Of a DNA stretch of 64,000 nt, positions 11,253-55,488 are shown piece by piece. Location: positions 256,001-320,000 of the forward strand of contig CAVYLP010000001.1 of the NCBI GenBank assembly GCA_963769425.1. The letters are read 5' to 3'. Position 1 is the stretch's first letter; the number at the start of each line of letters is the position of its first letter. The notes under the pieces were generated by a model. It saw only the letters and a program-made list of their open reading frames with translations. It was not told the DNA's origin and searched no databases. The translations under genes were made by a program, and so were the position numbers. Origin of the DNA: Candidatus Bathyarchaeota archaeon. Its GTDB lineage: Archaea > Thermoproteota > Bathyarchaeia > TCS64.

Positions 11253-11492
11253 GTGACGCTTTTGGCTAAGAAGTTCAGGGTGAAGGTGGACGAGGCGACC
11301 TGCAAGGGGTGCGGCATCTGCGTCCACATCTGCGAGACTAAGGGGAATAAGAACCTGAGGTACGGGCAGAAGAGGACGCTCCTCGGGGGGAGCCTTCCCG
11401 AGGGCACCGACAAGTGCACCGGCTGCCGCTGGTGCGAGAGGTACTGCCCAGACTTCGCCATAACCATTGAGGAGGAGAAAAAGGATGCTTAA
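11253..11492 (+). CDS. korD: 2-oxoacid:ferredoxin oxidoreductase delta subunit, 2x[4Fe-4S]
   Basis: CKGCGIC..IC and CTGCRWCERYCPD; first gene of the operon. Confidence 0.88.
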   Translation: MTLLAKKFRVKVDEATCKGCGICVHICETKGNKNLRYGQKRTLLGGSLPEGTDKCTGCRWCERYCPDFAITIEEEKKDA

Positions 11493-15705: not shown

Positions 15706-16045
15706 GATGCCCGAGAAGAACCTGCTGATCATAATTAAATCCGCGCCATATACGACGCTCGACTACTACGAGGGTACGAGGACCGCCGCAGGGCTCATAG
15801 AGCACAAGCTCAGGATACTCTACACCGGCGACGGCGTCTACGCCGCGACCAAGGCATCTGATAAGAAGCTGACGGGCCAATTCCTCTCGGATTTACCCGA
15901 TCTGGGGGTCGAGTTGTACGCAGACGTTAACGCGATGAGGGAGAGGGGAATAACTGACTCGGAGCTGGCCTCATTCATCGCACCAGCCGATGCGGGGAAG
16001 CTCACGGAGCTTGTAGCGAACGCAGAGGCATCCTTGGTCTTCTGA
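15698..16045 (+). CDS. dsrF: DsrF/TusC-like subunit
   Basis: APY, EG.R, GDGVY, ERG. Confidence 0.8.
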   Translation: MDEMPEKNLLIIIKSAPYTTLDYYEGTRTAAGLIEHKLRILYTGDGVYAATKASDKKLTGQFLSDLPDLGVELYADVNAMRERGITDSELASFIAPADAGKLTELVANAEASLVF

Positions 16046-16046
16046 G

Positions 16047-16316
16047 GTGAGATGCATGAAACTCTTCATCATCAGGAAACACGACGCGTCGCAGCTCAGG
16101 TTGGCCGAGTCCGTTAATGGCGCATCAATCGTCTTACTGCAGGACGGGGTGTTCCTGGCGACTTCGCCCATCAAGGCAGACGAAGTCTACGCGCTCGCAG
16201 AGGACGCCGAGAAGCGTGGCGTGAGGGATAAACTCCAAAAGCGGCTCCGGCTCGTCGGATACGATGAGCTGGCCGCACTACTACTCGAGGGCGGTAAAAC
16301 GGTGATCAATCTCTGA
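16047..16316 (+). CDS. dsrH: DsrH/TusB-like subunit
   Basis: LLQDGV, YAL.ED...RG, Y.EL. Confidence 0.85.
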   Translation: MRCMKLFIIRKHDASQLRLAESVNGASIVLLQDGVFLATSPIKADEVYALAEDAEKRGVRDKLQKRLRLVGYDELAALLLEGGKTVINL

Positions 16317-16327
16317 GGCGCCATGAA

Positions 16328-16774
16328 ATGGACATAGACTCCTGGGATAGGCAGATTCTTGAGACGCTGGCGAGGGATGCCCGCCTCAGCTACAGGGACA
16401 TAGCTAAGCATCTTGGGCTGAGCCACGCGAGCGTCTCGGCCCGCATCAAGAGGCTCGAGGAGGGCGGCGTCATCAAGGGCTACGCCGCGGTCATCAACCC
16501 GGACGCCGAGGGACTCTACCCGCTGTGCCTGAGGATTTCGGCGAAGTCTGGTTACGAACTCGGGGAGATCGGTAGGAGGATAGCCGAGTTCCCCGAGGTA
16601 CACGTCGTCATGAGGGTGAGCGGCGAGTGCGAGCTACTCGCCCTGACTCTAAGCGGGGACAGGCAGGCCGCCCTAGACCTGCTCTCGAGGATCAACAGGG
16701 TTGAGGGCATCGAAAAGGCAGAGAGCCACGTCGTGCTCGAGTCCCTGAAACTCTCCGGGTTCAGACTCAAGTAG
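16328..16774 (+). CDS. Lrp/AsnC transcriptional regulator
   Basis: D..IL..L..DARLSY.DIA..LGLS...V..RI.RLE..GVIKGY. Confidence 0.93.
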   Translation: MDIDSWDRQILETLARDARLSYRDIAKHLGLSHASVSARIKRLEEGGVIKGYAAVINPDAEGLYPLCLRISAKSGYELGEIGRRIAEFPEVHVVMRVSGECELLALTLSGDRQAALDLLSRINRVEGIEKAESHVVLESLKLSGFRLK

Positions 16775-16821
16775 GCTAGAAGCCGTTTTTAACGCCTCGC
16801 CACACGTGTTTATGAGGCACC

Positions 16822-18894
16822 GTGATCAGGGTCAGCGTCGACGTCGGCGGGACCTTCACAGACCTCGTCGCCCTAGACGAGGAGACTGGGAGGGTCGAGA
16901 ACATCAAGGTCCCATCCGTCCCGAGGAACCCGGAGAGGGGCGTAACTGACGCCTTCGAGGCGTTCCTGCGGGGGCACCAGCCGAGCGACGTGCGGTTGAT
17001 CGGACACGCGACCACCATTGCGACGAACGCGCTTCTTGGTCAGGTCGACCTCGACGTCCCACGTGTCGCCCTCGTGACCACGCGGGGCTTCAGGGACGTC
17101 GTCGAGATCGGGCGCCAGCGTCGCGCTGAGGTCTACAACCTATTCTTCAAGCGCCCCAAGATGCTCGTGGAGAGGAGACTAAGGTACGAGGTGGAGGAGA
17201 GGGTGGAGTACAACGGCTCCGTCTCGACCCCGTTAGATGAGGCTGAACTCGGCAGAGTGTTTGACGAGATCACCGGCCTAGGCATCTCATCCGTCGCCTT
17301 CTCGTTCCTAAACAGCTACGCGAACCATACTCACGAGGAGCGCGCCCTTGTCATGGCGAAGGAGAGAAGGGTCGCCCCCTACCTCACAGCCTCTCACAGG
17401 GTCAGCAACGAATACCGAGAGTACGAGCGCACGAGCACCGCCGTCGTCAACGCCACCCTCATGCCAATAATCCACCGGTACCTCACCCAGCTCAGCAAGG
17501 ACCTGAAGGGGATGGGTGTCGAGGCTCCGCTCTACGTCATGCAAAGCAACGGAGGCCTCTCCACCGTGGGGAACGTCTCCGAGAAGCCCGCCACAATAGT
17601 TGAGTCAGGCCCAGCCGCGGGTGTCATCGCCGCTGCCTGGCTCGGGAAACTCTCTGGAGCGGGGGACATAATCAGCTTCGACATGGGTGGGACCACGGCG
17701 AAAGCGGGGACGGTGCGCGGCGGGATGCCCGAGGTCGTCCCCGAGTACGAGGTCGCGGGCCACATCCACATAGGCCGCCTCGTCAAGGGGAGTGGTTACC
17801 CCGTCAGGTTCCCCTTCATAGACCTCGCCGAGTGCAGCAGCGGCGGGGGCACGATCGCGTGGGCTGACGAGGGAGGAGCACTCAGGGTCGGGCCCACGAG
17901 CGCCGGAGCCTTCCCCGGACCCGCCTGCTACGGTCGAGGTGGGGAGGAGCCCACGATAACCGACGCGAACCTTCTCCTCGGGCGCCTTAACCCCGGGAAC
18001 CTGCTGAGCGGCGGAATGCCCATCTACCCCGAGAAGTCAAAGGCGGCGCTCGCAAGGCTGGGGGAGAAGACGGGGATGGGTGCGGATGAAGCAGCGGTGG
18101 CGGTGATTCGCATCGCGAACTCAATGATGGGGAAGATACTCCGCATAGTCTCCGTGGAAAGGGGATACGACCCGCGCGGCTTCACGCTCGTCGCCTTCGG
18201 TGGCGCAGGCCCCATGCATGTCTGCGCCCTCACGGAGGAGCTCGAGGTCGCCAAGATCGTGATCCCGCCCAACCCGGGGATGTTCAGCGCCCTCGGTCTG
18301 CTGACCGCGGACATGTTCCACGACTACATCCGCCCAGTCGTCAAGAGGGTCACCGTGGTAGACCCGGGTGAGGTTGAGGCCGCGTACCGCGAGATGGAGG
18401 CGGAGGGGCGTGAGACGCTCAGGGGGGAGCACGTACCGCTGGAGAAGATGAGCTTCCTACGGCAGGCGGACCTCCGTTACCTCGGGCAGGCGTACGAGCT
18501 GACCGTCCCCGCCCCGAGGAGGATCAACGGCGAGTCCCTAGTCGCGACGCTAATTGCCTTCCACAAGCGACACAGAGAGGCTTACGGCTACTCTGCCGAC
18601 GGGGAGCCAGTCGAACTAGTCAACCTCAGGCTCAGGGCGATCGGAAATATCCCAAAGCCCGAACTTGGGGCTACCAAGCAGCGCGGTGAACCAAGGAGTC
18701 AGGAATCCCGGAAGGTCTACTTCGAGGGGAAAGGGTGGCTCGACACTCCGGTCTACCAGAGAGAAAACTGGGCGAGCGGATTCACCGGCCCCGCAATAGT
18801 TGAGCAGTACGACGCGACCACCGTCATCTACCCGGGCTGGGCGGTTGAGACGGACGGGGTGGGTGACCTCGTCCTCAGGAGGACAACCGTATGA
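16822..18894 (+). CDS. hyuA: Hydantoinase A/5-oxoprolinase N-terminal subunit
   Basis: DVGGTFTD, SGPAAG, DMGGTT, SAGA.PGPACYG, FGGAGP. Confidence 0.92.
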   Translation: MIRVSVDVGGTFTDLVALDEETGRVENIKVPSVPRNPERGVTDAFEAFLRGHQPSDVRLIGHATTIATNALLGQVDLDVPRVALVTTRGFRDVVEIGRQRRAEVYNLFFKRPKMLVERRLRYEVEERVEYNGSVSTPLDEAELGRVFDEITGLGISSVAFSFLNSYANHTHEERALVMAKERRVAPYLTASHRVSNEYREYERTSTAVVNATLMPIIHRYLTQLSKDLKGMGVEAPLYVMQSNGGLSTVGNVSEKPATIVESGPAAGVIAAAWLGKLSGAGDIISFDMGGTTAKAGTVRGGMPEVVPEYEVAGHIHIGRLVKGSGYPVRFPFIDLAECSSGGGTIAWADEGGALRVGPTSAGAFPGPACYGRGGEEPTITDANLLLGRLNPGNLLSGGMPIYPEKSKAALARLGEKTGMGADEAAVAVIRIANSMMGKILRIVSVERGYDPRGFTLVAFGGAGPMHVCALTEELEVAKIVIPPNPGMFSALGLLTADMFHDYIRPVVKRVTVVDPGEVEAAYREMEAEGRETLRGEHVPLEKMSFLRQADLRYLGQAYELTVPAPRRINGESLVATLIAFHKRHREAYGYSADGEPVELVNLRLRAIGNIPKPELGATKQRGEPRSQESRKVYFEGKGWLDTPVYQRENWASGFTGPAIVEQYDATTVIYPGWAVETDGVGDLVLRRTTV

Positions 18895-20597
18895 TCGATA
18901 AGACGACCGTCGAGGTGATCCGAGGCGCCCTCGTCTACGCCGCAGAGGAGATGGGCATCGCCCTGAAGAAGTCGGCTTATAGCCCCAACATCAAGGAGAG
19001 GATGGACCACAGCTGCGCCCTCTTCGACCCGCAGAGGCGCCTCATAGCTCAGGCGGAGCACATCCCCGTACACCTCGGCTCGATGGCACTAGGTGTGCAT
19101 GAAGGGATCGCAGCTTACAAGGGCACGCTCGGGCCGGGGGATATGATCCTCTTAAACGACCCGTACATCAGCGGCACGCACCTCCCCGACCTAACCCTCA
19201 TCGCTCCCATTTACGAGGGCACACGTCTACTCGGCTACGCCGCGAACAAGGCACACCACACAGACGTTGGCGGCAAGGCACCAGGCAGCATCGCCGGTGA
19301 CTCCACGGAGCTATACCAAGAGGGACTCATCATCCCGCCCGTCAAGTTCGTGAAGGCGGGCGTCATCGACCCCGAGCTTAGCTGGCTTATCAGGAGCAAC
19401 GTCAGGACCCCGGACGTCCAGATGGGGGACCTACGCGCGCAGATAGCGGCCAACAACACGGGGATCAGACGTGTCCTTGAGCTCGCAGCACAGTATGGCG
19501 CGGACACGCTCCACTCGGCGATGGAGGAGATCATGGACTACTCCGAGAGGCGCATGAGGGCCGCCATCTCCACGATGCCGAGCGGCGTCTACGAGGCATC
19601 CGACTACATGGAGGACGTCCCCGGGGTGGGCCTCGCCGAGATCAGGGCGAAGGTCACCGTAGAAGGCGACGGCATCACCTTCGACTACTCTGGGACCTGC
19701 CCACAGGTCGAGGCACCAATAAACGCCCCGCTGGGGGTCACCATCGCGGGCATCTACTACACTCTCATCACCGTCACGGACCCGACCATACCCGTGAACG
19801 ACGGCTGCTTCCGCCCGATCACCCTCCACATCCCCGAGGGAACCATCATGAACCCGAGGAGACCCGCGCCGGTCGCCGGGGGCAACGTGGAGACGAGCCA
19901 GAGAAACGTCGACGTCCTAATGAAGGCGTTCTCCAAGATCACGCCCGGGAAGGTGCCCGCTGCTGGCCTCGGCACCATGAGCAACGTCAGCGTCGGCGGC
20001 ACCCGCCGAGATGGGACCCCCTGGACCTTCTACGAGACCATCGGGGGCGGTTCGGGTGGGCGCCCGGATAGCGACGGCGTCGACGGGGTACACGTAAACA
20101 TGACGAACACCATGAACACCCCCATCGAGAGCCTTGAAGCGTATCTCCCGATGCACTTCGTCTCCTACAGGCTGCGCCCAGACACGGGTGGCGCCGGGCA
20201 ATATCGCGGGGGCTGCGGGATCGAGAGGAGTTGGACTCTCACCGCCCCGAAAGCGACTCTCAGCATACTCGCTGAGAGGACGAAGATTCAGCCATGGGGG
20301 CTAAAGGGGGGCGGGGGCGGTGCCCTGGGTGAGTATAAACTCATTAAGAGAAGCGGTGAGACCCTGACTCTCCCCTCGAAGTGCACCGTCCAGATCGAGG
20401 AAGGGGACACACTCGTGATCCACACGCCGGGAGGGGGAGGATTCGGGGACCCAAGGAGGAGGGACCCGCAAAGCGTCCTCAGAGACGTTCTGAATGGTCT
20501 CGTCTCTCCGGAGTCCGCGGAGAGGGACTACGCCGTCTCGATCAGGGACGGTGCGGTGGACGGGGAGCGGACTCGCCTGTTCAGGGTTAGGCTTTGA
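18891..20597 (+). CDS. hyuB: Hydantoinase B/5-oxoprolinase C-terminal subunit
   Basis: D.SCA, HIPVHLG, NDPY..GTHLPD, HH.DVGG, PGGGGFGDP. Confidence 0.92.
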   Translation: MIDKTTVEVIRGALVYAAEEMGIALKKSAYSPNIKERMDHSCALFDPQRRLIAQAEHIPVHLGSMALGVHEGIAAYKGTLGPGDMILLNDPYISGTHLPDLTLIAPIYEGTRLLGYAANKAHHTDVGGKAPGSIAGDSTELYQEGLIIPPVKFVKAGVIDPELSWLIRSNVRTPDVQMGDLRAQIAANNTGIRRVLELAAQYGADTLHSAMEEIMDYSERRMRAAISTMPSGVYEASDYMEDVPGVGLAEIRAKVTVEGDGITFDYSGTCPQVEAPINAPLGVTIAGIYYTLITVTDPTIPVNDGCFRPITLHIPEGTIMNPRRPAPVAGGNVETSQRNVDVLMKAFSKITPGKVPAAGLGTMSNVSVGGTRRDGTPWTFYETIGGGSGGRPDSDGVDGVHVNMTNTMNTPIESLEAYLPMHFVSYRLRPDTGGAGQYRGGCGIERSWTLTAPKATLSILAERTKIQPWGLKGGGGGALGEYKLIKRSGETLTLPSKCTVQIEEGDTLVIHTPGGGGFGDPRRRDPQSVLRDVLNGLVSPESAERDYAVSIRDGAVDGERTRLFRVRL

Positions 20598-32136: not shown

Positions 32137-33754
32137 CTACTTTCGGGTCTTCAGGGTGTTGCTGAGAGCGGAGTAGGCGTCCTTGTTCCAGGGGTCGTTG
32201 TTCCAGATGGTTGTGAGGTTGATCCTCGCCCCCTCACAGGCGTCCATGAGGGTGCTCTCAACCTCGTCGTCGAGGTCGCCCTTCCCCCTGTAGAGGTAGA
32301 CGGCCTTGTGGCCGCTGCAGGCGACATAATTGGCGACTTCACTTGCAGTGTATCGGATGGTCTCCAAGTCGAGGGGGGTCGCTATCTCGAATTGGGATAA
32401 GGGGTACGTTTCTGATAGGTCGGCTGGGACGGGCCCGTATGGGGCCGCGTAGAAACAGAAGTGGAGCCCGTCGACATCCTCGCCTAGTTCGTTATAGATG
32501 TGCTGCCTGAGGTGTCTGTACTCGTCGCTGCTGTCGAATGGTTTGTGGGTAGGGGTCGTGATGAGGATGAGTGTGTCGGCACCTGCGAATCTCCTGTAGT
32601 TCTGGTTGAGGTGATGGGTGTATCGGGTAATCTCTGGCCGTGTGAGGCTGTGGTAATCGTAGTAGAAGACGCCGTGCCCCTTGAAGGCGGGGCTCCCCTT
32701 TTCGAGGTCGTCGCGGTACTCCCAGAGCCTCTTGAGTGCCGAGGTCATGGCGGGGTGCCCCCTCGCCCTCCTCTCGACGAGATCCCAGAGGCTCCCCTCG
32801 AAGATGGCCTGTTTCACCGCGTCTATCTCGGACATGCACGCGTGGAGGTTGTGCTCGGCGAGGAGCCTCTCTCTCTCGCTCTTTATGGCGGTCTTCAGCT
32901 CCTCGGCGGAGTGCTTCCTGCAGACGGGGCAGGTGCACGGGAGGTAGCTGATGTCCTCGAGACGGAGGGTTCCGTGGGGGGTGAGGTATCGCCCGTCCTT
33001 CGCGTAGAGGGCGTAGCTTGCTGAGTCGAATAGGTCGCAACCCAGCGCAGCGGCGAGGCTGAACATCATGGGGTGGCCCGCGCCGAAGAGGTGGAGAGGC
33101 CTATCCGGTGGGAGGTTTCGCTTCGCGGCAACGATCATATCGACGAGGACGGGAAACATATACCGCTCCATGACCTCCGTGGGGCTCCCGAGGGCGTGTA
33201 TCTGGAATGGCATCTCGCCGATGCTCTTCGCCGATTTGGCGACAAGGTCTAGGTGCTTACCGCCCTGCACTGGGCCGACCCAGAGGGCATCACTGTTCTC
33301 GATCAGAGGGATGGCAGCCTCGGCACGGCGGAGCGTCTCATCGACAGTGTACTCCACACTTCTCTCGGGGAACGTCCCAGCCCGTTGGGATGTCAAGAAT
33401 TACAGCTATGTCACTTCGAATCTTCTTCTGGTACTCGATGATCTCCGGCTGGGTAATCTCAACCTCCCCGTAGACGAGTATCTGGTAGGCGCCCGAGTCG
33501 GTCATCACTACGCCGTCGTAGTCTAGGAGCCTATGGATGTCGAGGTCGGAGATCTCGGAGAAGTTCTTCTTGGTAAGGTAACTGTTGGTGATGACGATGT
33601 CAGTATGGAACTCCTTCCTCATCCTCTTAGGGGGGATGATCTGGGTGAGGGGGTTTATGACGGGCATGAAGGTGGGGGTCTCGACGACGCCGCCCTTCGT
33701 CTTGAGGCGCCCGATCCTCCCCATGAGGTCCCTGTCCCTGAGCTCGAAGGCCAT
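32137..33754 (-). CDS. tgtA: Archaeosine tRNA-guanine(15) transglycosylase, frameshift near 33358
   Basis: GRIG.L.T....ETP.FMPV.NP, TDSGAYQ, LDIP, PVQGG, HLFGAGHPM, DLFDSASY, C.CPVC...H. Confidence 0.93.
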
Positions 33755-37588: not shown

Positions 37589-38419
37589 CTACTTCTCGAA
37601 CTTGTCGCCGAGCTTCGTCTTCTTCCGAGTCTCACCCTTGCTGAAGTGGGCGAGGCGGGCCGCCGAGTCGTTCGCCTTCTCCATCTCTCTAGCCTCGTCT
37701 GCGGTCTTCGCTGCCTGTCTGAGAAGCTCGTGGGCGGCGGCGAGGATTGGTAGGTACCTCTCCGGTTCCTCGACTTTAAATGTGCCCTCTGTGCTGAGGT
37801 TGGCTACGCGGCGGGCGGCTTCGAATGCGGCCATCGCCTTACCCTGGGCGTAGGGGTTCGTGATCTGCGCCGCGGCCAATGCGTTCTCCTTCTCCACCAC
37901 AACCTGTGGCAGGGTCGGCTTCTCACCTTTACCGATCTGCTCGATCACCTTGTCGATCTCCTGCTGCACAATCCTGAAGCTGCCCGTGACGGCGAGGACC
38001 CTTATTGCATCCGAGTTGAAGAGAGCCATCTCGACTGGGTCAAGGAAGCTCTGCTTCGCCCCGATCATCGGGTCGTTCATGACAACGATGTACCCGACTC
38101 CCTCGACTGGGTTCTCTTTCAATGTCTTCCTGCTCGGTTCATCGGAGACCACTATGATGGGCTTACCCGTTGCGCGGAGTGCCTCTCTGGCCTTCGTAGG
38201 CCCCGGCATCGCGGCATTCGGGGAGACCACAATGTAGAGGTCCGAGGGTATGTCCGCGGCTATCCTGGCGACGTCGACGGCCGCCTCCTCCTCCATGCTC
38301 ACGCTGGATGAGACGACCCTCATCTGCAGGTCCTTGCGCCCCGATCTCTCATCTAGGAGGGCGTCAATCAGAGTGGTTGTGGCTATATACCCGATCTTGA
38401 CGAAGGTGACCTTTACCAA
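37589..38419 (-). CDS. mtd: F420-dependent methylene-H4MPT dehydrogenase
   Basis: K.G.I.....D.LLDER..R.D, SPN...PGP, DPMIGAK..FLDPVEM, NPYA, AAAHE. Confidence 0.93.
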   Translation of the reverse strand: MVKVTFVKIGYIATTTLIDALLDERSGRKDLQMRVVSSSVSMEEEAAVDVARIAADIPSDLYIVVSPNAAMPGPTKAREALRATGKPIIVVSDEPSRKTLKENPVEGVGYIVVMNDPMIGAKQSFLDPVEMALFNSDAIRVLAVTGSFRIVQQEIDKVIEQIGKGEKPTLPQVVVEKENALAAAQITNPYAQGKAMAAFEAARRVANLSTEGTFKVEEPERYLPILAAAHELLRQAAKTADEAREMEKANDSAARLAHFSKGETRKKTKLGDKFEK

Positions 38420-42337: not shown

Positions 42338-44020
42338 ATGCCTATGGCTCTACCGACGAAGATCGAGATCGCCCAGAGCGCCAAGCTCAAGCCGATAACC
42401 GAGATCGCAGCGGGTCTCGGGCTCAGCCCCGATGACATCGAGATGTATGGGAAGTACAAGGCGAAGATACGCCCCGAGGTCTACACAAGGAATAAGGACA
42501 AGCCCGACGGGAAACTGATAATAGTCACCGCAATCACCCCGACGAAGTTCGGGGAGGGTAAGACGACTATGAGCATCGGCCTCGCCGAGGCGTTGGGGAA
42601 GCTGGGGAAGAGGAACATCGTCGTCCTCCGCCAGCCGAGCCTCGGCCCCGTCTTCGGCGTCAAGGGCGGCGCCTGCGGGGCCGGCTACGCCCAAGTCCTC
42701 CCCATGGAGGACATAAACGTCCACTTCACCGGCGATCTACACGCCATCACCTGCGCCCACGACCTCCTCACCAGCATCATGGAGAACCACATAAACCGCG
42801 GCAACGAGCTGGGCATAAGCCTCCACGACATCATGTGGAAGCGCGTAATCGACATAGAGAGCAGGACCCTCCGCAAGATGGTCATAGGCCTCGGCGGCAA
42901 GAACAATGGCATCCCCTACGAGAGCGGCTTCGAGATCACCACCGCATCCGAGATCGCCGCAATACACGCCATAAGCAGCGACTTCATGGATCTCAAGAAG
43001 CGCATGGCAGCGATCACCGTCGCATACGATAAGGATGGGAAACCGGTTACGGCAGGTCAGCTTCAGGTCGTCGGCGCCATGGCTATCCTGATGAAGGACG
43101 CGGTTAAGCCCAACCTCATCCAGACGATCGAGGGGACACCCGGCATCATCCACGGCGGCCCATTCGCGAACATCGCGCACGGCTGCCCGAGCCTCATCGC
43201 CATAAAGACCGCGCAGAAGCTCACCGACTACGTCGTCCTCGAGCCCGGCTTCGGCGCCGACCTCGGCATGGAGAAGTTCTGCAACATCGCAAGCCGCGCA
43301 GGCGGGCTGAAGCCCAGCGTCGCCGTCATCGTCGCCACGATTAAGGCGCTGAAGAGGCACGGAGGCACCAAGTACAGGGACATCGACAAGCCCAGTGCCG
43401 ACGCCGTCAGGAAGGGGTTGCCAATCCTCGCCAAGGAGGTGGAGAACGCCAAGAAGTTCGGCCTCCACCCCGTCGTCTGCATGAACCACTTCCTCAACGA
43501 CGCCCAGGAGGAGATCGATATAGTCATGAACTGGGCCAAGGAGAACGGGGTCCCCGCGGCCTTCACGGACACCGTCCTCAAGGGCGGCGCGGGTGGCACC
43601 GAGCTAGCGAACCTCGTCCTCAAGGAGCTGGAGAAGCCGAACAACTTCCACTTCCTCTACCCACTCGAGATGCCCGTCGAGGAGAAGATCAGGACCATCG
43701 CCAAGGAGATCTACGGCGTGGCCGACATACGCCTCACGGACGACGCGAGGAAGGCGCTGAAGCAGATCGAGAAATTCGGCTTCGACAAGCTCCCAATCTG
43801 CATGGCGAAGACGCCGCTCAGCCTCACGGACAACGAGGATCTGCAGGGTCTGCCACCCACCGGCTACATACTGCCCATAGTCAACCTCAAGCCGAGCACA
43901 GGCGCTGGCTTCATCGTCGCCTACTGCGGCGACATAAGCACGATGCCCGGGGAGCCGACACACCCAGCCAGTGAAGAGATGGACATCGACGAGAACGGCA
44001 TCATAAAGGGGTTGGCGTAG
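42338..44020 (+). CDS. fhs: Formate--tetrahydrofolate ligase
   Basis: TPT..GEGKTT, KGGA.G.GYAQV, HGGPFANIAHG, AKT..S. Confidence 0.95.
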   Translation: MPMALPTKIEIAQSAKLKPITEIAAGLGLSPDDIEMYGKYKAKIRPEVYTRNKDKPDGKLIIVTAITPTKFGEGKTTMSIGLAEALGKLGKRNIVVLRQPSLGPVFGVKGGACGAGYAQVLPMEDINVHFTGDLHAITCAHDLLTSIMENHINRGNELGISLHDIMWKRVIDIESRTLRKMVIGLGGKNNGIPYESGFEITTASEIAAIHAISSDFMDLKKRMAAITVAYDKDGKPVTAGQLQVVGAMAILMKDAVKPNLIQTIEGTPGIIHGGPFANIAHGCPSLIAIKTAQKLTDYVVLEPGFGADLGMEKFCNIASRAGGLKPSVAVIVATIKALKRHGGTKYRDIDKPSADAVRKGLPILAKEVENAKKFGLHPVVCMNHFLNDAQEEIDIVMNWAKENGVPAAFTDTVLKGGAGGTELANLVLKELEKPNNFHFLYPLEMPVEEKIRTIAKEIYGVADIRLTDDARKALKQIEKFGFDKLPICMAKTPLSLTDNEDLQGLPPTGYILPIVNLKPSTGAGFIVAYCGDISTMPGEPTHPASEEMDIDENGIIKGLA

Positions 44021-44021
44021 A

Positions 44022-44858
44022 ATGGCGATAATCCTCGACGGCAAGGAGACATCAGCCAAGATCGTTGAGGAGATCAAGGCGGAGATCGCCGCCCTGAAGG
44101 CTAAAGGTGTCAACCCGACGCTTGCACTCATACTGATCGGGGGAGACCCCGGCTCGGTCCGATATGTCAACATCAAGGTCAAGCGCGCCGAGGAGGCCGG
44201 CATAGCCACACAGTTCCACCACCTGGAGACCGCCACGACGGAGCAAGTCGTCACGCTCATCAAGAAGCTGAACACGGACCCCAAGGTCCACGGTATAATG
44301 GTCCAGCTCCCCGCGCCCAAGGAGGTGAACGAGGGCACCATAGTCGAGGCGATCGCCCCGGAGAAGGATGTCGACGCCCTCAGCCCCGTCACCTTCGGCA
44401 AGATAGTCCTCGGAGAGAAGAGCTTCCTCCCCGCCGGCGTCGAGGCCATCATGGAGCTACTCAAACGCTACAATGTCGACCCCGAGGGCAAGCACTGGGT
44501 AGTCGCCGGCTTACCGAGCTGGCTTGGTAAACCCATGGCAGCGATGCTCCTCAACAAGAGGGTAGAGGTCACCGCCTTCGCCGCAGGGGACCCACGGCTA
44601 CCCGAGTTCGTGAAACAGGCGGACGTCCTCTGCATCGAGATACACAGGAAGTGGACCGTCACCGCAGACATGGTGAAGAAGGGAGTCGTCGTCATCGACA
44701 ACGGCAACAGCTACGAGGGCAAGAAGGTCTTCGGGGACGTCGACTACGAGCGCGTCGCGCCACTAGCATCAGCGATCACCCCCGTCCCCGGTGGCGTCGG
44801 GCCCCTCCTCATCACGATGCTCCTGCGGAACACGGTAATGGCGGCTTCAACTGCCTAG
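44022..44858 (+). CDS. folD: FolD-family methylene-THF dehydrogenase/cyclohydrolase (divergent cofactor domain)
   Basis: YV..K, VQLP, KDVD, TPVPGGVGP. Confidence 0.9.
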   Translation: MAIILDGKETSAKIVEEIKAEIAALKAKGVNPTLALILIGGDPGSVRYVNIKVKRAEEAGIATQFHHLETATTEQVVTLIKKLNTDPKVHGIMVQLPAPKEVNEGTIVEAIAPEKDVDALSPVTFGKIVLGEKSFLPAGVEAIMELLKRYNVDPEGKHWVVAGLPSWLGKPMAAMLLNKRVEVTAFAAGDPRLPEFVKQADVLCIEIHRKWTVTADMVKKGVVVIDNGNSYEGKKVFGDVDYERVAPLASAITPVPGGVGPLLITMLLRNTVMAASTA

Positions 44859-49368: not shown

Positions 49369-49980
49369 GTGTCCGAAAAGTTCGAATGCGAGGTAATGGA
49401 CTGGGACCTCTTCTACGAGCTCTCGAAGAAGACCGCCGACAAGATCATCACGTCGAGGTTCAAGCCCGACTTCATGGTGGGCCTCGCCCGTGGGGGCTGG
49501 GTCCTGAGTCGCGTCCTCTGCGACTTCCTCGGCGTGAAGGACCTCGTGAGCCTGAAGGTGGAGCACTGGGGCGTAACGGCGACGCCCGACGGCACAGCGC
49601 AGATAAAGTACCCGTTCCGCATCGAGCTCAGGGGCAGGAAGGTGCTGATAGTTGACGACATCACGGACACTGGTGAGAGCATGATTGTCGCCAAGGAGTA
49701 CGTTGAGACGATGAACCCACAGGTCGTGAAGACGGCGACGCTGCGCACCATCAAGGGCAGCAAGTTCACGCCCGACTACTTCGGCGACGAGATAAGCTGG
49801 AGGTGGGTCGTCTTCCCCTGGAACTACAATGAGGATATGTGTAACATAGTCCCAAAGACAGCAGCTGATGGCGCGCCGCCTGAGGAGGTGGCGAGACGCC
49901 TCAAGGCGAATAATAACTTGGACCTCAGCGTATCTGAGGTCGAGAGGATACTCAAGGAAGCAAAGAGGAGAAAGGTCTAA
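49369..49980 (+). CDS. Purine phosphoribosyltransferase (archaeal HGPRT-like)
   Basis: ARGG, VLIVDDITDTG, W.VFPW. Confidence 0.88.
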   Translation: MSEKFECEVMDWDLFYELSKKTADKIITSRFKPDFMVGLARGGWVLSRVLCDFLGVKDLVSLKVEHWGVTATPDGTAQIKYPFRIELRGRKVLIVDDITDTGESMIVAKEYVETMNPQVVKTATLRTIKGSKFTPDYFGDEISWRWVVFPWNYNEDMCNIVPKTAADGAPPEEVARRLKANNNLDLSVSEVERILKEAKRRKV

Positions 49981-50270
49981 GCGTCTTCGTCCTCGTCGTC
50001 TTCCTCATCTACGTCGACTTCTACCGCCTCCGCTCCACCCTCCGCGGCTTTCTTGGCTGCGGCGGCCTTCTCCTCGTCGGTGGTGAGGCGGTACTTGCGG
50101 ATCCCATCCAACCCACGGGCAGAAACTATCTCGCCGCCCTCGAAGAGGCTGCGGAGTAGGCGGAAGACGCGCTTCTCCTTAAGCTCCATTGAGGCCGCGA
50201 TCTCGGCTAGGCTGAGCGGCTTATCTTGGAGGTGCTTGACTACGTCTTTCTTGAGCTTGGCTGTCGACAT
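49977..50270 (-). CDS. Small winged-HTH protein with acidic tail
   Basis: LSLAEIA...ELKEKRVFRLLRSL...G, tail DVDEEDDEDEDA. Confidence 0.7.
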   Translation of the reverse strand: MSTAKLKKDVVKHLQDKPLSLAEIAASMELKEKRVFRLLRSLFEGGEIVSARGLDGIRKYRLTTDEEKAAAAKKAAEGGAEAVEVDVDEEDDEDEDA

Positions 50271-50377
50271 CCCTGTAGTAATATGGGGGGTCTGCGTTAA
50301 GAATTTGACGCTGAAACTCCCAACATTCACAAAACATCCAAACAAGTAAGCACTGTATGGCGTAAAATGGAAGGGAC

Positions 50378-51364
50378 TTATTGGTTGAAGGATGAGGTCC
50401 AGGGAAGGATTATCTTCCCTGTCTCATCCATCTCATCCCAATACTTCCACTGGTTGTCGACAGAGAGTTGCAGATACTCTAGGGCAGCCTCGTTCTCCCA
50501 GAGATGCGCGAACCTCCCCTGCTTCGTAACGTATTCTCGTATCTTCTTCCGGGGATTCGGCTTCGTAGTGAGGTGGAAGTGGCCGTTTTCGTACTCCCAT
50601 AAGACCCACATTCCGGTGTTTACTGCGGTTCGCCCTATCTCCACAGTCTCCTCCGGTGGGAACGCCCAGCCCTTGGGGCAGGGTGTAAGAAGCTGTACCA
50701 GTGAAGGTCTACCGCTATTAAGGGCTTTACGGACCTTGTTAACAAGGTCCACAGGGTAGGAGATGCAGGCGGTGGCGACGTAACCTATGGAGGGGTGAAC
50801 AGCAGCGATTAATGCCATGTCCTTCTTCAGCCTCTCGTTGCCTATGGGCTTCACCTTCCCTGACGGGGTGAACGTCGTTGAGGAGCCGAAGGGCGTTGTG
50901 CTAGAAGCCTGGACGCCTGTATTTGCGTAAGACTCGTTGTCGTATAGGAGGTAGAGCAGGCGGGAGTAGTCGTAGGTCAGACCCATTGACAAACCGCTCA
51001 GCCCTATATCTGAGAATCCCCCATCTCCACCGTAGACAATGACGTTTACGTCCTCCTTCTTCCGCTTACCCTTGAACATCAGCGACCGGAGCGCCGCGGC
51101 GGTGCCTATTCCAGCCGGTCCTCCTGCCCCGAGTTGGGTGTGGTACCATGGGACCGCGTATGGTGAGGATAGGAACTGGTGGCCGTTGGCGACGTACATG
51201 CAGCCGGTTGGACCGAGCACTACGGTCTTCGGGCCGGCGGCTTTGAGCACGAGCCGGTATCCGAGGGCGGGGCCACAGCCTGCACATGTCCGGTGCCCGG
51301 AGACGTAGTAGTCCTCCGGTGGTATTTCGGTTGGTTTTTGGATCAGTTTAGTTTCGCGGCTCAT
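50378..51364 (-). CDS. Oxalate oxidoreductase-like OFOR beta subunit (TPP, [4Fe-4S])
   Basis: GHRTCAGCGPAL.YRL..KAAGP, GPTGCMYVAN, GDGG, DNESYANTG, PCPKGW. Confidence 0.88.
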   Translation of the reverse strand: MSRETKLIQKPTEIPPEDYYVSGHRTCAGCGPALGYRLVLKAAGPKTVVLGPTGCMYVANGHQFLSSPYAVPWYHTQLGAGGPAGIGTAAALRSLMFKGKRKKEDVNVIVYGGDGGFSDIGLSGLSMGLTYDYSRLLYLLYDNESYANTGVQASSTTPFGSSTTFTPSGKVKPIGNERLKKDMALIAAVHPSIGYVATACISYPVDLVNKVRKALNSGRPSLVQLLTPCPKGWAFPPEETVEIGRTAVNTGMWVLWEYENGHFHLTTKPNPRKKIREYVTKQGRFAHLWENEAALEYLQLSVDNQWKYWDEMDETGKIILPWTSSFNQ

Positions 51365-52602
51365 TGATCTTCACCTCTCACGGTAACCCACCTGACGGGT
51401 TTGTCCACCTTACCCTTCTTCACTGATTCGATGAGCTGCTTCGTGGAGTTCTCGAGCTCCGTTAGCGTCATCTCTCTTCCACCAGCGAAAATGTAGTCCA
51501 TTATTATCGGCCTGTTTTTGGAGTCGTAAAGCGCCGCCTTGACCTCGTTGTATAATACGCTACCGTTCCAGGGAGAGCCGAGGCTGAATGAGAAGTCGAT
51601 CACGCCTACTCCCCTCACGTCCTCGAGGATGTTTTTCAGCTCCTCTGTTGGGAAGGGTCGGAGATATTTTAGCCTCAGGGAACCAACTTTGATTCCCTTC
51701 TCGCGTAGTTTCTCGACTATGTAGTCTGCGTTACGTGAGTATGCACCCATCGACAGTAGGACGTAGTCAGCGTCTTCCATCTTCATTGACTCGAACCATG
51801 GATCGACCTCCTTGCCGGTTATGTCGCCCCAGCTCTTCCAAGCCTCGGGGATGACGACGTTCTTAGCTCTCTTAATTGCGGCGTCGAGAGACTTCCTCTG
51901 CTCTGGCCCTATTAGTGAGGGGGCTATGTGCATGGCCTTGCTGACGGTGTCGTAGCTGGGGTCTAGTGGGTGTGGTTGCTTGTATGGGGGTAAGAAGCGG
52001 TCCACGAGATCCTTCTTTGGGGGAAGGACGGGTGACGCGACGTGTGTGATGGTGGCGCCGTCTAGGGCAACGAAGTGTGGGAGTAGTACCCGCTCATCTT
52101 CCGCGATCTTGTAGGCGACGAGGGTCATCTCCAGTGCTTCCTGCGGGTCTTTAGACCAATTCATTAGCCAGCCAACGTCCCTGAACAGGAAGGCATCATT
52201 CCACTCCATGCCAAAGTTTCCGGGATCGTCGAGTGATCTGCACCCAACGACGCCGACGACGGGTAGCTGGCCGAGGGCGGTCGTTATGACGGCTTCAGTT
52301 CCGTATATTAGCCCGGTTCCGGAGCTTCCGACGAATGTCCTCGCACCAACGGCGGAGGCGTGCTTTACAACCTCGAATTGACTGTGCTCTGAGTCGCATA
52401 TGAGGTACTCGGCGTAGAAGTCTCCACCCGCTATCATTGTTGCTAGTGAGTTCATTATGCCCGTGTAGGGTCGAATCGGGTAGGCGGCGATGACGTCCAC
52501 GTCGGCTAGTTTCACGGCCTCGGCTACGGCTCTCGCCCCTGTCCATACCCGCCTCTTCTGAACGCTCTTTTGCACTGATACTTGCGAAGTTTTACTCATC
52601 AT
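51361..52602 (-). CDS. Oxalate oxidoreductase-like OFOR alpha subunit
   Basis: YPIRPYTGIM (not YPITP), EH, GSSG, RSLDDPGNFG. Confidence 0.85.
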   Translation of the reverse strand: MMSKTSQVSVQKSVQKRRVWTGARAVAEAVKLADVDVIAAYPIRPYTGIMNSLATMIAGGDFYAEYLICDSEHSQFEVVKHASAVGARTFVGSSGTGLIYGTEAVITTALGQLPVVGVVGCRSLDDPGNFGMEWNDAFLFRDVGWLMNWSKDPQEALEMTLVAYKIAEDERVLLPHFVALDGATITHVASPVLPPKKDLVDRFLPPYKQPHPLDPSYDTVSKAMHIAPSLIGPEQRKSLDAAIKRAKNVVIPEAWKSWGDITGKEVDPWFESMKMEDADYVLLSMGAYSRNADYIVEKLREKGIKVGSLRLKYLRPFPTEELKNILEDVRGVGVIDFSFSLGSPWNGSVLYNEVKAALYDSKNRPIIMDYIFAGGREMTLTELENSTKQLIESVKKGKVDKPVRWVTVRGEDQ

Positions 52603-52609
52603 CAGCACC

Positions 52610-53734
52610 TCAGTACGCGTACTCGATGAGCGCCTCGCGTATTGTGAGGAACTCCTCCTCATCGAGGCCCTCTAGGGCGGCGAGTTCATGTGGCATCGAT
52701 ATCGCCTTTGGCCCGCAGACCTTTGCACATATGCCGCACCCCTTGCAGTAGTCGTAGTCTACCTTGATAGTGTCGAAATCGATGGCTCCATCGGGGCAGA
52801 AGATGTGGCAGAGTTTGCAGTCCACACATTTGCTCTTGTCGATGACGGGTCGGAATGTTCTAGCGAAGCTCGTCTTGAAGCCGAAGTTCCTCTCACCCAC
52901 ATTAGGGCCGAACTCGATGAGGGCCGGCGCGATCTGTTCCCAAGTCGGCATCGCCTTCATTCTCTCCTCGTAGGTTGGGGCTTCGGCTACGGCTCGCTTG
53001 ATCTTGAGGTAGGACTCCTTGTCCCAAGGACCGGGCTTAGCTCCCCCTACTTTGGCACCTTCGCCGAGGTGCGATACTTTACTATACTGCTCGCACTCGG
53101 AAGCCTTGAGCGAGACATCAATCGACTCGGCTTCGTCGTATGCTCTCCTCACGGCGTCAACGGCTTCCCTCTGGTCCTCAGAAGATTCGAGGGAGTCGAT
53201 GACGTGTTCTAGTGTGACCAAGGGTTCCATCGACTTGGCGATGGCACCTATCATTCCGTATGCTATATTCTTGTCATACTTTTTTGCGCGCAGAGTGAAT
53301 ATTTTTCCATCCCAATCGTGGGCGCAGCCATACTTTTTGACCAGTCTGAGGATTACATCGGGTTTGAGCGACGTGTTGACCACGAGCGAGGCGTTCCTCT
53401 TCGCCCCGTCGAGAAGCAGCGCCCTCTGCGAGGTCGACTTAACGAGGAGGGACGAGTCGAGGACGGCAATCGTGTCGAATACGCTGCCGATGGGCTCAAC
53501 CTCCTCTGGCAGTATCATTTTGATCTTTGGGTTACCGAAGACGGCATAGTAGATGAAGGGCAGCTGAACCCTCTCAGGGCTGTCGTCGTATCTCATGTAG
53601 TAGAAGGCTTCTCTCCCCGCGGCTACGCCCGCCTGTGAAAGCGTCAGCGCTATCTGGGAAGAGTGAGCCGTGTTTATTACCCCCCGTCCGTGGATGGCCA
53701 GCCACGTCAGGCTCTCAAGCTCGGGTGAAGACAT
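52610..53734 (-). CDS. Oxalate oxidoreductase-like fused gamma-delta subunit, 2x[4Fe-4S]
   Basis: HGRGVIN in place of GRGGQG, Y.D.PER, CVDCKLC...CP and CKGCGIC...C. Confidence 0.82.
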   Translation of the reverse strand: MSSPELESLTWLAIHGRGVINTAHSSQIALTLSQAGVAAGREAFYYMRYDDSPERVQLPFIYYAVFGNPKIKMILPEEVEPIGSVFDTIAVLDSSLLVKSTSQRALLLDGAKRNASLVVNTSLKPDVILRLVKKYGCAHDWDGKIFTLRAKKYDKNIAYGMIGAIAKSMEPLVTLEHVIDSLESSEDQREAVDAVRRAYDEAESIDVSLKASECEQYSKVSHLGEGAKVGGAKPGPWDKESYLKIKRAVAEAPTYEERMKAMPTWEQIAPALIEFGPNVGERNFGFKTSFARTFRPVIDKSKCVDCKLCHIFCPDGAIDFDTIKVDYDYCKGCGICAKVCGPKAISMPHELAALEGLDEEEFLTIREALIEYAY

Positions 53735-53964
53735 ACCACTCCCAGAGAGCTTTACGATGGGCTCTTTTAAGATATGTTGCGCTGGTGGGCATGATTCTCG
53801 ATTAGGAAATTTGGGGATCTTACAAAGAAGCGATTATTCTCTGCAACTGCTTGTAGAGATTTTTTTCGCCAGCTCTTGGACTACCTTATCGAAACCCATT
53901 GAGCCATTAAATGTGAAATTCTACAGTTTAAGAACTTCCGTTTACACTAAACAATCGACCCTTT

Positions 53965-54354
53965 ATGGATCAGACAATCGTTCACTTCGAGATACCCGCA
54001 AAGGACCTTGAAAAGCTCAAGGGATTCTACGAGAAAGTTTTCGGATGGAAGATAGTGAAGTCGCCTCCGATGGCGGAGATGGAATACTGGATCATCCAGA
54101 CGGTGCCTACAGACGATAAGGGCATGCTCCTCCGCCCCGGGGTTAATGGTGGCATGTACAAGAAGGAAATGGAAGGTGCAACCGCCGTAAACTACGTCGC
54201 TGTCGCCGATATAGACAAGGCGATCAAGGAGGCGAAGAGACTCGGTGCGAAGGTTGTCAGTGACAAGGCGGAGATACCTAAGATCGGATGGTTCGCGGTC
54301 CTCAGAGATCCCGAGGGCAACCCAATTGGAATGTTGCAGCCGGCTCCGATGTAA
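53965..54354 (+). CDS. VOC/glyoxalase family protein
   Basis: IVHFEIP, FYEKVFGW, DPEGN. Confidence 0.9.
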   Translation: MDQTIVHFEIPAKDLEKLKGFYEKVFGWKIVKSPPMAEMEYWIIQTVPTDDKGMLLRPGVNGGMYKKEMEGATAVNYVAVADIDKAIKEAKRLGAKVVSDKAEIPKIGWFAVLRDPEGNPIGMLQPAPM

Positions 54355-54364
54355 TATCGCGCTG

Positions 54365-55087
54365 CTAGAATTTTTTGATTATCTCGAAAACTTGTTTGTA
54401 TAGATTTGTCCTAGTCAACTTGTCAGGTTGTCCTATGGATTCCTCAACTGAGGAGTCGAAGTCGATACAGCCTAAGTATCTGACACTCATTTTCCTCGTC
54501 TCCGCCTCGATATAGCCCGTGTGATCCATGGACATGTTCTCCAGTACGCCTATCGTTGGTACATGTTGGTCTTTGAGTAGGACGAGAAGTTTACGGACGG
54601 ACTCGTAGGCTAATCGACTCGGCGTTGTTACTACCAGGAACTCTATTCGGGGGATGAGTCGGATCATGTCGAGGGTGGCGTCTCCTATGCCGGGGGGCAT
54701 GTCTATGATAAGGTAGTCTAGGGTCTCCCAACGGGTTATAGCGAGTAGCTCGATTATGGCGTTGCTCGCATCAGCGCCGCGTAGGGGGACGGGCTCGTCG
54801 GTGCTGTAGTGGACTATGCTCATGTAGTGGAGGCCGTGGGCAAGGGGGGGAGTTATTCCCCTCTCCTCGTGTGGGACGAGGCCCTCGACGCCGAGGATGA
54901 CATGTGTGCTAGGGCTTGTAAAGTCTAGGTCAAGTAAGCCGACACTCCGCCCCTTGTCTCTAAGGGCCAGGGACAGGGCGACGGCGATCATGCTCTTGCC
55001 CACTCCCCCCTTCCCGCTGCTTACGGCAATAATCCGCTTGACTTTGTCGAATCTCTCGGGGATTATGGCGAGGCGGGGGTCGCTCAC
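54365..55087 (-). CDS. Mrp/NBP35 family P-loop ATPase
   Basis: SGKGGVGKS, DMPPG.GD, ENMS. Confidence 0.9.
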   Translation of the reverse strand: MSDPRLAIIPERFDKVKRIIAVSSGKGGVGKSMIAVALSLALRDKGRSVGLLDLDFTSPSTHVILGVEGLVPHEERGITPPLAHGLHYMSIVHYSTDEPVPLRGADASNAIIELLAITRWETLDYLIIDMPPGIGDATLDMIRLIPRIEFLVVTTPSRLAYESVRKLLVLLKDQHVPTIGVLENMSMDHTGYIEAETRKMSVRYLGCIDFDSSVEESIGQPDKLTRTNLYKQVFEIIKKF

Positions 55088-55488
55088 TCCTTCTTCCTCC
55101 CCTTCATGCTTGCGAGCCAGACACCGCGCCCCTCGGTTATCTCGAAGTCGGGGCTACCGCAGTTGGGGCACTTGAGGTAGACGTGTGCCATCTCGGGGAC
55201 GAAGTGGATTGCCTCGCCTGTTTCCTCGTCCAGCTTATTCGTCTCCAGCTTCCACTCGTGACCACACTTACGGCACTTGAAGGCGGCGGGAACCGTTTCT
55301 ATGACGAATTTGGTGTTTTTCATCCGTGGGGTCCGCATCTGGTCGAGGGCGAACTCGATGATTTCGTGCTCGATCTGCTGTAGTTCGCCGATGGCTATCC
55401 TGACCTCGGTTACCTCCTCCATGCCCTGATCCTCGGCGAACTTGTCGGCGGTTTTGATGATGCCCTCGGCTAGGGCCCACTCGTGCAT
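55084..55488 (-). CDS. hypA: Hydrogenase nickel incorporation protein HypA
   Basis: MHE, C..CG, CP.CGS. Confidence 0.95.
   Translation of the reverse strand: MHEWALAEGIIKTADKFAEDQGMEEVTEVRIAIGELQQIEHEIIEFALDQMRTPRMKNTKFVIETVPAAFKCRKCGHEWKLETNKLDEETGEAIHFVPEMAHVYLKCPNCGSPDFEITEGRGVWLASMKGRKKE

Follow-up and report, generated by a model that had tools for sequence, protein, structure and literature searches.

To our knowledge, oxalate oxidoreductase (OOR, EC 1.2.7.10) is known biochemically from one bacterium, Moorella thermoacetica. Glyoxylate is a poor substrate of this enzyme, and Gln211 is a residue which we take to be part of its active site. The four-subunit pyruvate:ferredoxin oxidoreductase (PFOR) of Methanosarcina acetivorans is dependent on coenzyme A (CoA), and the Desulfovibrio PFOR has Leu121/Ile123. 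In PMC5020499, roles in Moorella OOR are ascribed to Arg31, Arg109 and Asp116, with a mobile loop and a 'bait and switch'. A 2024 review, as far as its text is accessible, cites only Moorella for OOR; no report of OOR in archaea or Bathyarchaeia has been found in the literature searched, and the accessible parts of 10.1101/235028 and PMC12337175 describe no archaeal OOR enzyme; where oxalate comes up in a paper on Bathyarchaeia, it serves for extracting iron. Here we describe a three-gene operon in 64,000 nt of DNA from a Candidatus Bathyarchaeota archaeon (contig CAVYLP010000001.1, positions 256,001 to 320,000; this whole stretch is called the window). From comparison of its sequence we read the operon, on balance and with restrained confidence, as encoding an OOR-like, probably CoA-independent enzyme for oxalate or another C2 acid, which belongs to an uncharacterised, mostly archaeal sister clade of OOR, referred to below as N-type.

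The operon consists of three consecutive open reading frames (ORFs) on the minus strand, which follow each other head to tail and have been identified by their translations:

52610-53734, minus strand: fused gamma-delta subunit gene (374 aa), with domain III at the N-terminus, then a linker, and the two-[4Fe-4S] ferredoxin domain at the C-terminus
51361-52599, minus strand: alpha subunit gene (412 aa), domains I-II
50378-51364, minus strand: beta subunit gene (328 aa), with the thiamine pyrophosphate (TPP)-binding domain VI

The longest ORF of alpha extends over 51361-52662, and the probable real start has been placed at 52599 because a 100%-identical database protein (P0001) has a length of 412 aa. 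This start lies 10 nt past the gamma-delta stop, and the ATG of beta overlaps the alpha stop by 4 nt. In a Pfam scan, alpha has been assigned POR_N and PFOR_II and beta TPP_enzyme_C (PF02775), while gamma-delta has yielded 4Fe-4S (Fer4) domains only, in its C-terminal 80 residues, and no PF01558 match. Beta carries GHRTCAGCGPALGYRL and GPTGCMYVAN, a GDGG...NE..N TPP motif, and the Cys ligands of a proximal [4Fe-4S] cluster in GHRTCAGCGP, GPTGCMY and TPCPKGW, and gamma-delta carries LAIHGRGVINTAH and two CxxCxxCxxxC motifs. With POR_N, PFOR_II, TPP_enzyme_C, the GDG...N motif and Cys ligands for three clusters, the enzyme belongs to the superfamily of 2-oxoacid:ferredoxin oxidoreductases (OFORs).

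Alpha carries AAYPIRPYTGIM and CRSLDDPGNFGMEWND. Its YPIRP motif has been located by translation at 52468-52482, with the Arg corresponding to OOR Arg31, and its substrate loop RSLDDPGNFG at 52210-52239, where the Asn codon 52216-52218 corresponds to OOR position 116. In the phmmer alignment to 5c4i_A the query residues C-R-S-L-D-D-P-G-N-F-G are paired with D108-R109-T-L-D112-P-P-G-D116-F-G, and YPIRPYTGIM is paired with an identical stretch of OOR. Arg31 and Arg109 are thus retained (as Arg43 and Arg121 of the window alpha), position 116 is Asn and Pro113 is replaced by Asp. When each subunit was compared by phmmer with all chains of the PDB, Moorella OOR (5c4i, 5exd, 5exe) has ranked first for all three and M. 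acetivorans PFOR second. The E-values for alpha are 3.6e-90 (5c4i_A) and 3.2e-59, and those for beta 4.7e-96 (5c4i_C) and 5.6e-64 (9bt4_C), respectively; for gamma-delta, OOR delta (5c4i_B) has matched in two stretches with 1.4e-17, and M. acetivorans PorD in the ferredoxin part only with 2e-12. The matches to OOR cannot be put down to chance.

Inspection of domain III of the fused gamma-delta subunit for the canonical GxGGQG loop has found the motif absent, which concerns the motif as such; at 53678-53692 (translation check) HGRGV is present, and a second conserved block reads RYDDSPER, while the corresponding N-terminal places of the canonical OFOR gamma in the same window hold GTGGQG and YGAEARGG. 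Moorella OOR delta also shows RGV opposite HGRGV in the phmmer alignment, and all of 20 aligned relatives retain R17, G18 and the eight Cys. Profile alignment by hhalign of gamma-delta with the window's canonical gamma has covered residues 98-186 only, with a probability of 0.98%, and has left the N-terminal motif without register. An AlphaFold2 model of gamma-delta based on 20 relatives (pLDDT 81, pTM 0.86) has been compared with solved structures by Foldseek; the eight delta chains of Moorella OOR take the first eight places (TM by target 0.72-0.79, E between 3.8e-17 and 4.7e-15), followed at rank 9 by the free-standing Thermotoga PorC 2raa. As the OOR delta chains lead this ranking, the fusion of domain III and ferredoxin corresponds to the OOR architecture.

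A first-pass annotation of the window had described this three-gene operon and its motifs, the Arg31 and Arg109 hallmarks together with Asn at the Asp116 position, and the replacement of the GRGGQG loop in the gamma part, and all of this has been recovered by the translations and alignments above. It had further called the enzyme OOR-type, which has held for the architecture and for the best solved relative of all subunits and has failed with respect to the curated family cut-offs and the Asp116 clade. The assignment is right in architecture and nearest relatives, yet the gene stands outside the curated OOR family.

To place position 116 in the context of the family, loops have been surveyed by a search of 1.84 billion cluster representatives and by another search that started from an Ala-type protein. 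All of the 120 closest database homologs have YPIRP, and among them position 116 is Asn in 117 and Ser in 2, with 1 lacking a pattern match. The YPIRP proteins fall into three sharply distinct loop types:

D-type: loop LDPPGDFG(S/E)EH; some are named OOR by IMG, and one is from a Vicinamibacterales metagenome-assembled genome (MAG)
A-type: loop LDDPGAFG(C/V/T)EHND, found in 120/120 in the second search
N-type: loop LDDPGNFGMEWND, the type of the window

The named sources of the A-type include NC10/Methylomirabilis, Binatia, Nitrospinota, Dehalococcoidia, Armatimonadota and others, as well as some Thermoproteota with LDDPGAYG. Among 401 sampled genomes of the phylum, two further forms have been met, namely LDDPGAYGVEHNDA in five single-contig genomes and LDDPGNFGVEHT ('N2') in 12 genomes of one family. 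The latter is a small-genome family of Thermoproteota (~1.0-1.5 Mb) in which the N2 loop occurs in 12 of 32 sampled genomes (L108-L119, L130-L134); in the flanks of five enlarged N2 loci, tblastn with our own query set only has recognised nothing.

Outside the YPIRP proteins, the Asp116 column of 108 representative alphas holds Asn in 45, Ser in 23, Thr in 14, Gly in 9, Ala in 6 and other residues in 11, with Asp in none. Since Asn is found clade-wide and is also the commonest residue in non-OOR OFORs, with Asp in 0 of 108, Asp116 appears to be derived and a speciality of the Moorella type. Asn116 is thus a conserved, probably ancestral state and no lesion. The earlier description of a 'catalytic Asp replaced by Asn', understood as a change from an OOR ancestor, has therefore to be given up, and the survey of Asp versus Asn that it had called for has found Asp confined to the D-type. 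The residue at position 113 varies together with 116: Asp113 accompanies a non-Asp residue at 116 in 120/120 A-type and 115/120 listed N-type sequences, and Pro113 accompanies Asp116 in every D-type sequence seen. This pairing of Pro113/Asp116 versus Asp113/Ala-or-Asn116 is what would be expected if the acidic group had moved along the loop, although it rests on very few evolutionary events, and Asp113 may take over the job ascribed to Asp116 in Moorella, a possibility which the first-pass annotation had itself named as grounds against its interpretation. Conservation within each of N, A and D has been found for 105 alpha columns, 78 of them identical in all three; N and A agree against D in 13, each type has its own residue in 6, N stands apart in 5 and A in 3, and the N-specific or three-way columns include OOR 108, 116, 121 (Trp) and 211 (His for Gln).

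Two maximum-likelihood trees of alpha (79 and 50 sequences; quick search, LG+C20, SH-aLRT support) have united all YPIRP sequences in one group (99, 100), which is parted from 40 and 12 POR/VOR-type (pyruvate or branched-chain 2-oxoacid) representatives with support of 99-100. The D-type is sister to the remaining YPIRP sequences (96, 95), and N-type (99, 99), N2 (100) and, together with its Tyr form, the A-type (99) have each been recovered as a group; the trees do not settle the branching order among N, N2 and A, and the archaeal A-type L107 floats. The window alpha accordingly stands in the sister group of the Asp116 (Moorella-type) clade and not inside it, and the grouping with OOR rather than POR/VOR, which had been set as a test beforehand, has come out in favour of OOR. 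In NCBIfam the three OOR equivalog models (NF045790/NF045791/NF045792) rank first for the three subunits. As a control, other alphas have been scored against the OOR alpha model: the three of the D-type exceed its cut-off (583, 577, 533), while four A-type and three other N-type alphas fail with 368-419.

A pattern search with one genome per species has found 25 N-type loci, and MAG titles among the N-type name Bathyarchaeia/Bathyarchaeota, Nitrososphaerales, Desulfurococcales, Desulfurococcaceae and Sulfolobales, the nearest being 93% identical. The bathyarchaeal host supposed in the annotation agrees with these nearest named relatives. In an even sample of the window's class, 11 of 201 genomes have matched at E 1e-100 or better, nine of them at >=55% identity (loops were inspected in part of these nine); two of the 11 are A-type, one of them in the window's genus, and each of the 11 has one operon, N or A, never both. 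Such a patchy distribution fits an accessory catabolic enzyme. No genome among the 401 of the phylum sample reaches the OOR cut-off.

If the enzyme works as OOR does, a small C2 acid of strongly anionic character, with oxalate as the most probable one, would be held between Arg43 and Arg121 and attacked by TPP, which would lead to decarboxylation. The two electrons would pass via the three [4Fe-4S] clusters to ferredoxin, and the second carbon would be released without CoA, because another sequence takes the place of the canonical GxGGQG loop of domain III, both here and in OOR. Probable outlets for the reduced ferredoxin are the [NiFe] hydrogenases of the genome, for which large-subunit matches have been found at five places, or other ferredoxin users. 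Oxalate is the single best candidate substrate. The comparisons show the structure of the genes, their motifs and cofactor-binding residues, the clade to which they belong, the conservation across this clade and the neighbourhoods of relatives; substrate, CoA independence, electron sink and the role of Asp113 are what we infer from them.

The gene neighbourhoods of relatives fit oxalate or a related C2 substrate, as had been proposed. The survey covers N- and A-type loci; gene calls at related loci are crude ORF picks, and the loci are not independent, so that locus counts overstate the number of independent observations. In the 80 metagenome loci of the bacterial A-type, beta is followed by TctC, TctB and TctA in the same orientation at 27 of the 33 loci that have >=4.5 kb downstream. 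A major facilitator superfamily (MFS) gene takes the place of the Tct genes after beta in L073, L093 and L104 (partially in L079), and L101 has both, with the MFS gene further off. All four full-length MFS proteins tested (L073, L093, L104, L101) pass the oxalate/formate antiporter model (475.7, 530.8, 468.1 and 525.5 bits; cut-off 335). The accessible literature on OOR has been found to give no account of a gene context with the antiporter. Among N-type operons, which keep the order gamma-delta, alpha, beta, MFS transporters adjoin in L004, L006, L017 and L126. The one in L006 (2216-3613, minus strand, divergent from the operon) reaches 382.9 bits on the oxalate/formate antiporter equivalog (cut-off 335), and that of L126, directly after beta, belongs to the oxalate/formate antiporter (OFA) family with scores below the cut-offs. 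The clades without Asp116 are in this way tied to the uptake of small carboxylates, with the oxalate/formate antiporter equivalogs as the most specific link, so that a C2-acid catabolic role appears likely for the whole superclade.

Several points weigh against our reading of the operon. All three subunits miss the curated OOR cut-offs (alpha 347.7/500; beta, OxalOxredbeta, 366.3/590; delta 97.1/230). Several probable active-site columns are unlike those of the D-type, namely OOR 113 and 116, 121, where Trp stands in place of His, and 211, where His stands in place of Gln. The trees take a narrow D-type sample in which D-type database proteins stand in for the Moorella sequence, and the neighbourhood survey is confined to the N- and A-type. 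For the role of Asp116 the source is a secondary one, PMC5020499. CoA independence is probable for the window enzyme, and the missing motif is its sole ground. Concerning the transporters, an OFA-family protein is near only 2 of 29 N-type loci (tblastn), and the flanks of N-type operons are otherwise not conserved. The four bacterial MFS proteins also score 322-339 on the L-lactate transporter model (cut-off 320), which OFA transporters pass or nearly pass. In the window's own genome no oxalate/formate antiporter homolog has been found (best TIGR04259 score 31.9 bits; none at E 1e-20 by tblastn with three OFA transporters). Finally, the GlcDEF-like and LctP context of archaeal A-type operons, described next, suits glycolate/glyoxylate or lactate/pyruvate as much as oxalate.

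It is quite possible, albeit the less probable case, that the OOR fold and its CoA-free chemistry serve another small substrate, such as glyoxylate (from glycolate, giving CO2 and formate), oxamate or a similar C2/C3 oxo-acid, with Asn116, Trp121 and His211 reshaping the pocket for a mono-anion. The clade-specific changes in the substrate loop and in the column of OOR Gln211 would agree with this, and so would three gene clusters in single-contig Thermoproteota genomes of the Ala/Tyr-type:

L120, 10774-17726: archaeal A-type cluster
L121, 10269-15595: archaeal A-type cluster
L136, 1541-6893: archaeal A-type cluster

In these, gamma-delta, alpha, beta and an OFA-family MFS gene are followed by GlcD-, GlcE- and GlcF-like genes, with an LctP permease last in L120, and each looks like a glycolate- or lactate-utilisation cluster. 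L135 has the MFS gene only, and L122-L124 have the MFS gene and an Lrp/AsnC regulator, with LctP in two. The matches to GlcD, GlcE and GlcF are below the curated cut-offs (462/568, 103/284, 194/333) and come from one archaeal genus, in which the link is to a glycolate- or D-lactate-oxidase-like complex; no neighbour found is as specific as the transporters above the oxalate/formate antiporter cut-off, and as glycolate oxidation can end in oxalate, a glycolate-type context is compatible with oxalate as well. Regulators of the GntR/FCD family, with LldR, PdhR and GlcC among their best named matches, likewise point to other acids; of the 58 bacterial A-type loci whose upstream sequence suffices, 19 have such a regulator within 3.5 kb upstream, while other loci have it 6-7 kb downstream.

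Amide hydrolases, which would suit the same alternative, recur near N-type operons. Genes of the gamma-glutamyltranspeptidase (GGT) family stand directly upstream and on the same strand in four loci:

L007, 6033-7826, plus strand: GGT-family Ntn-hydrolase gene
L009, 6903-8744, plus strand: GGT-family Ntn-hydrolase gene
L010, 6987-8777, plus strand: GGT-family Ntn-hydrolase gene
L025, 6987-8777, plus strand: GGT-family Ntn-hydrolase gene

Further ones are nearby in L008 and L014, and in L006 the other flank of the operon holds a gene of the FmdA-like formamidase/acetamidase family (7629-8528, plus strand). The GGT-family neighbour could supply the substrate of the enzyme from an amide. Being 77-97% identical, the GGT genes represent one (Bathyarchaeia) lineage, however, and their best solved match is 6j3a (E 2.5e-131), on which no paper has come up in the literature searched, with only weak likeness to the oxamate amidohydrolase HpxW (5hft, E 1.5e-18). 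An oxamate/ureide route has been considered and rejected on account of this weak likeness and single lineage, and of the window's genome having no close ortholog (<=33% identity); AllG has not been found in that genome either. FmdA-like, M20, Ldh_2 and CitMHS genes near N-type operons are single cases. Beside single archaeal loci (L106, L107, L018) an acetolactate synthase-like TPP enzyme and Ldh_2-family dehydrogenases have been observed, which are not conserved.

A formate product would find a user in formate-tetrahydrofolate ligase (FTHFS): in the window, 6-8 kb separate FTHFS and FolD (within 42338-44858, plus strand) from the operon, and an FTHFS-FolD-NAC-betaCASP block is likewise near the N-type operon in L019, L020 and L022, whose alphas are 58-59% identical. 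This synteny may be incidental, because the housekeeping genes NAC and beta-CASP intervene. Most of the OOR superclade, the N-type included, has no Asp116, yet oxalate/formate antiporter genes or glycolate-oxidase-like genes adjoin its operons; a bolder proposal, which we regard as doubtful, would be that either oxalate oxidation needs no Asp116, since a relocated Asp113 works, or the N-type is a CoA-independent glyoxylate/oxamate:ferredoxin oxidoreductase that delivers formate to the neighbouring FTHFS.

An ordinary CoA-dependent pyruvate or branched-chain 2-oxoacid:ferredoxin oxidoreductase, as which the enzyme appears in public annotation, is improbable. The database name 'pyruvate ferredoxin oxidoreductase alpha subunit' speaks for it, PorA and PorB are the second-best NCBIfam matches, and lactate-type transporters and LldR/PdhR-like regulators occur near relatives, with a pyruvate phosphate dikinase (PPDK) gene downstream in 9 A-type loci. 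A YPITP-type alpha from another genome (L129) moreover reaches 349.9 bits on the OOR alpha model, level with the window alpha, for which reason the score on this model alone is no proof of kinship with OOR; the kinship is shown by the PDB ranking and the trees. On the other side, the Thr of YPITP is Arg in all 120 homologs, GxGGQG is absent, gamma is fused to delta as in OOR, PorA_Arch (293.1/550) and PorB (295.1/405) both stay below their cut-offs, the trees separate the clade from POR/VOR types, and at least six POR/VOR-type operons already exist in the genome. Lacking YPITP and a separate GxGGQG gamma, and missing the cut-offs, the window enzyme is outside the four-subunit PFOR/VOR group (PorABDG/VorABDG). 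That the operon is a decaying or inactive paralog whose catalysis was abolished by the loss of Asp116 is hardly credible: the residue to which catalysis in Moorella OOR is attributed is missing and the window's other OFOR operon is frameshifted, but all three frames are intact with overlaps that resemble translational coupling, the cofactor ligands are conserved, the 78 of 105 conserved alpha columns are shared across N, A and D, and the loop is retained in homologs from Bathyarchaeia, Nitrososphaerales, Desulfurococcales and Sulfolobales.

The remaining features of the window concern the surroundings of the OOR-like operon and the metabolic setting of its host:

53735-53964, minus strand: intergenic region upstream of the operon, 230 nt, shared with a divergent glyoxalase-fold gene
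53965-54354, plus strand: glyoxalase-fold gene, divergent from the operon
49977-50345, minus strand: small acidic ORF of 122 aa, downstream of beta by 32 nt
11247-14169, plus strand: canonical OFOR operon of the kor-type, in the order delta, alpha, beta, gamma

By eye, a TATA-like TTAAAAG box is found ~33 nt before the gamma-delta ATG and GGGAGTGGT immediately 5' of it, the probable promoter and GGTG-type ribosome-binding site. The small acidic ORF, which has no family matches and homologs near the operon in L001, L019 and L020, may be co-transcribed with the operon. Directly upstream, on the strand of the operon, HypA and an Mrp/ApbC-like Fe-S carrier ATPase have been observed (54365-55488, minus strand). 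The same pair is present in L001, and in the A-type L107 an Mrp-like gene and a small ORF next to it are found on the opposite strand, ~3 kb upstream of the operon, these HypA/Mrp-like calls in L001 and L107 having been made without a family-library scan. Together with the glyoxalase-fold gene, the small acidic ORF and an F420-type LLM oxidoreductase they form flanks of which none is substrate-specific, and the case for the window enzyme is an indirect one.

The genome (2.55 Mb, 6 contigs, 91% complete) has one N-type operon, and it holds, besides the window's kor-type operon, alpha-beta pairs of POR/VOR-like kind at six other places, two of which appear as two alignment pieces each, in line with the earlier view of the operon as a specialised paralog beside a canonical one. 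The canonical alpha (11464-12616, plus strand) is split between two frames by an apparent 1-nt frameshift near 11688-11692; its N-terminal part ends with ...IAACIGG and continues in the other frame with ...GSWAGAKPMTATSGPG, which fits an extra base in a GGGC run, and the break is either a real frameshift or an assembly error. That the enzyme feeds CO2 and reduced ferredoxin to C1 metabolism, as the first-pass annotation had suggested, appears doubtful: FTHFS, FolD and Mtd (37589-38419, minus strand) are in the window, but no match to CdhC (acetyl-CoA synthase) has been found in the 91%-complete genome. For isocitrate lyase the genome has given only a partial match of 45.8 bits. As separate observations, the overlapping ORFs 32137-33396 and 33338-33754 (minus strand), which match positions 3-145 and 144-356 of Pfam TGT and DUF5591, look like one archaeosine tRNA-guanine transglycosylase gene that is frameshifted or split. 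Within 14902-20597 (plus strand) three DsrE-family genes, an AsnC-type regulator and hydantoinase/oxoprolinase A and B stand in a row, with ornithine cyclodeaminase, Asp/Glu/hydantoin racemase and arginase-family genes further upstream, and the region may be an amino-acid or cyclic-amide catabolic island.

Judged by sequence, relatives of OOR make up large clades to which public annotation gives the name of pyruvate oxidoreductases; they have been met in Bathyarchaeia and further Thermoproteota, in NC10, Binatia and other groups. Should oxalate or glyoxylate be their substrate, these clades would be unrecognised players in the anaerobic turnover, in peat, soil and sediment, of acids that plants and fungi make abundant, and metabolic models that count N-/A-type genes as PFOR would be wrong. 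With either substrate, peat and soil Bathyarchaeia would gain an unrecognised ferredoxin-reducing route for C2 acids. The N-type finding questions the generality of the Asp116 mechanism and suggests that the oxidation of C2 acids has been overlooked in archaea and in bacteria of soil, and the natural variation at positions 113, 116 and 121 provides a ready test of the role proposed for Asp116.

In comparison with known systems, the window enzyme shares superfamily and cofactors with the four-subunit PFOR of M. acetivorans (9BT4), which also has Asn at the column of OOR Asp116 but differs by its YPITP motif and its separate gamma and delta. With the uncharacterised, mainly bacterial A-type clade it has the operon order, YPIRP and Asp113 in common and groups with it in the trees, whereas the A-type has Ala at 116, His at 121 and conserved neighbours that the window lacks (TctCBA, GntR/FCD and antiporter genes, and GlcDEF-like genes in one archaeal genus). 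The closest agreement is with Moorella OOR (PDB 5C4I, 5EXD, 5EXE) in the three subunits with the domain III-ferredoxin fusion, in YPIRP (Arg31), Arg109, Asp112, Phe117 and Gly118, in the absence of the GxGGQG loop, and in the TPP motif and the ligands for three [4Fe-4S] clusters. The window enzyme differs from it in that Asp116 is Asn, Pro113 is Asp, His121 is Trp and Gln211 is His, and by a gamma-delta subunit (374 aa) which is ~60 residues longer than the Moorella one (315 aa); its host is an archaeon, and it misses the curated family cut-offs and belongs to the sister group of the Asp116 clade.

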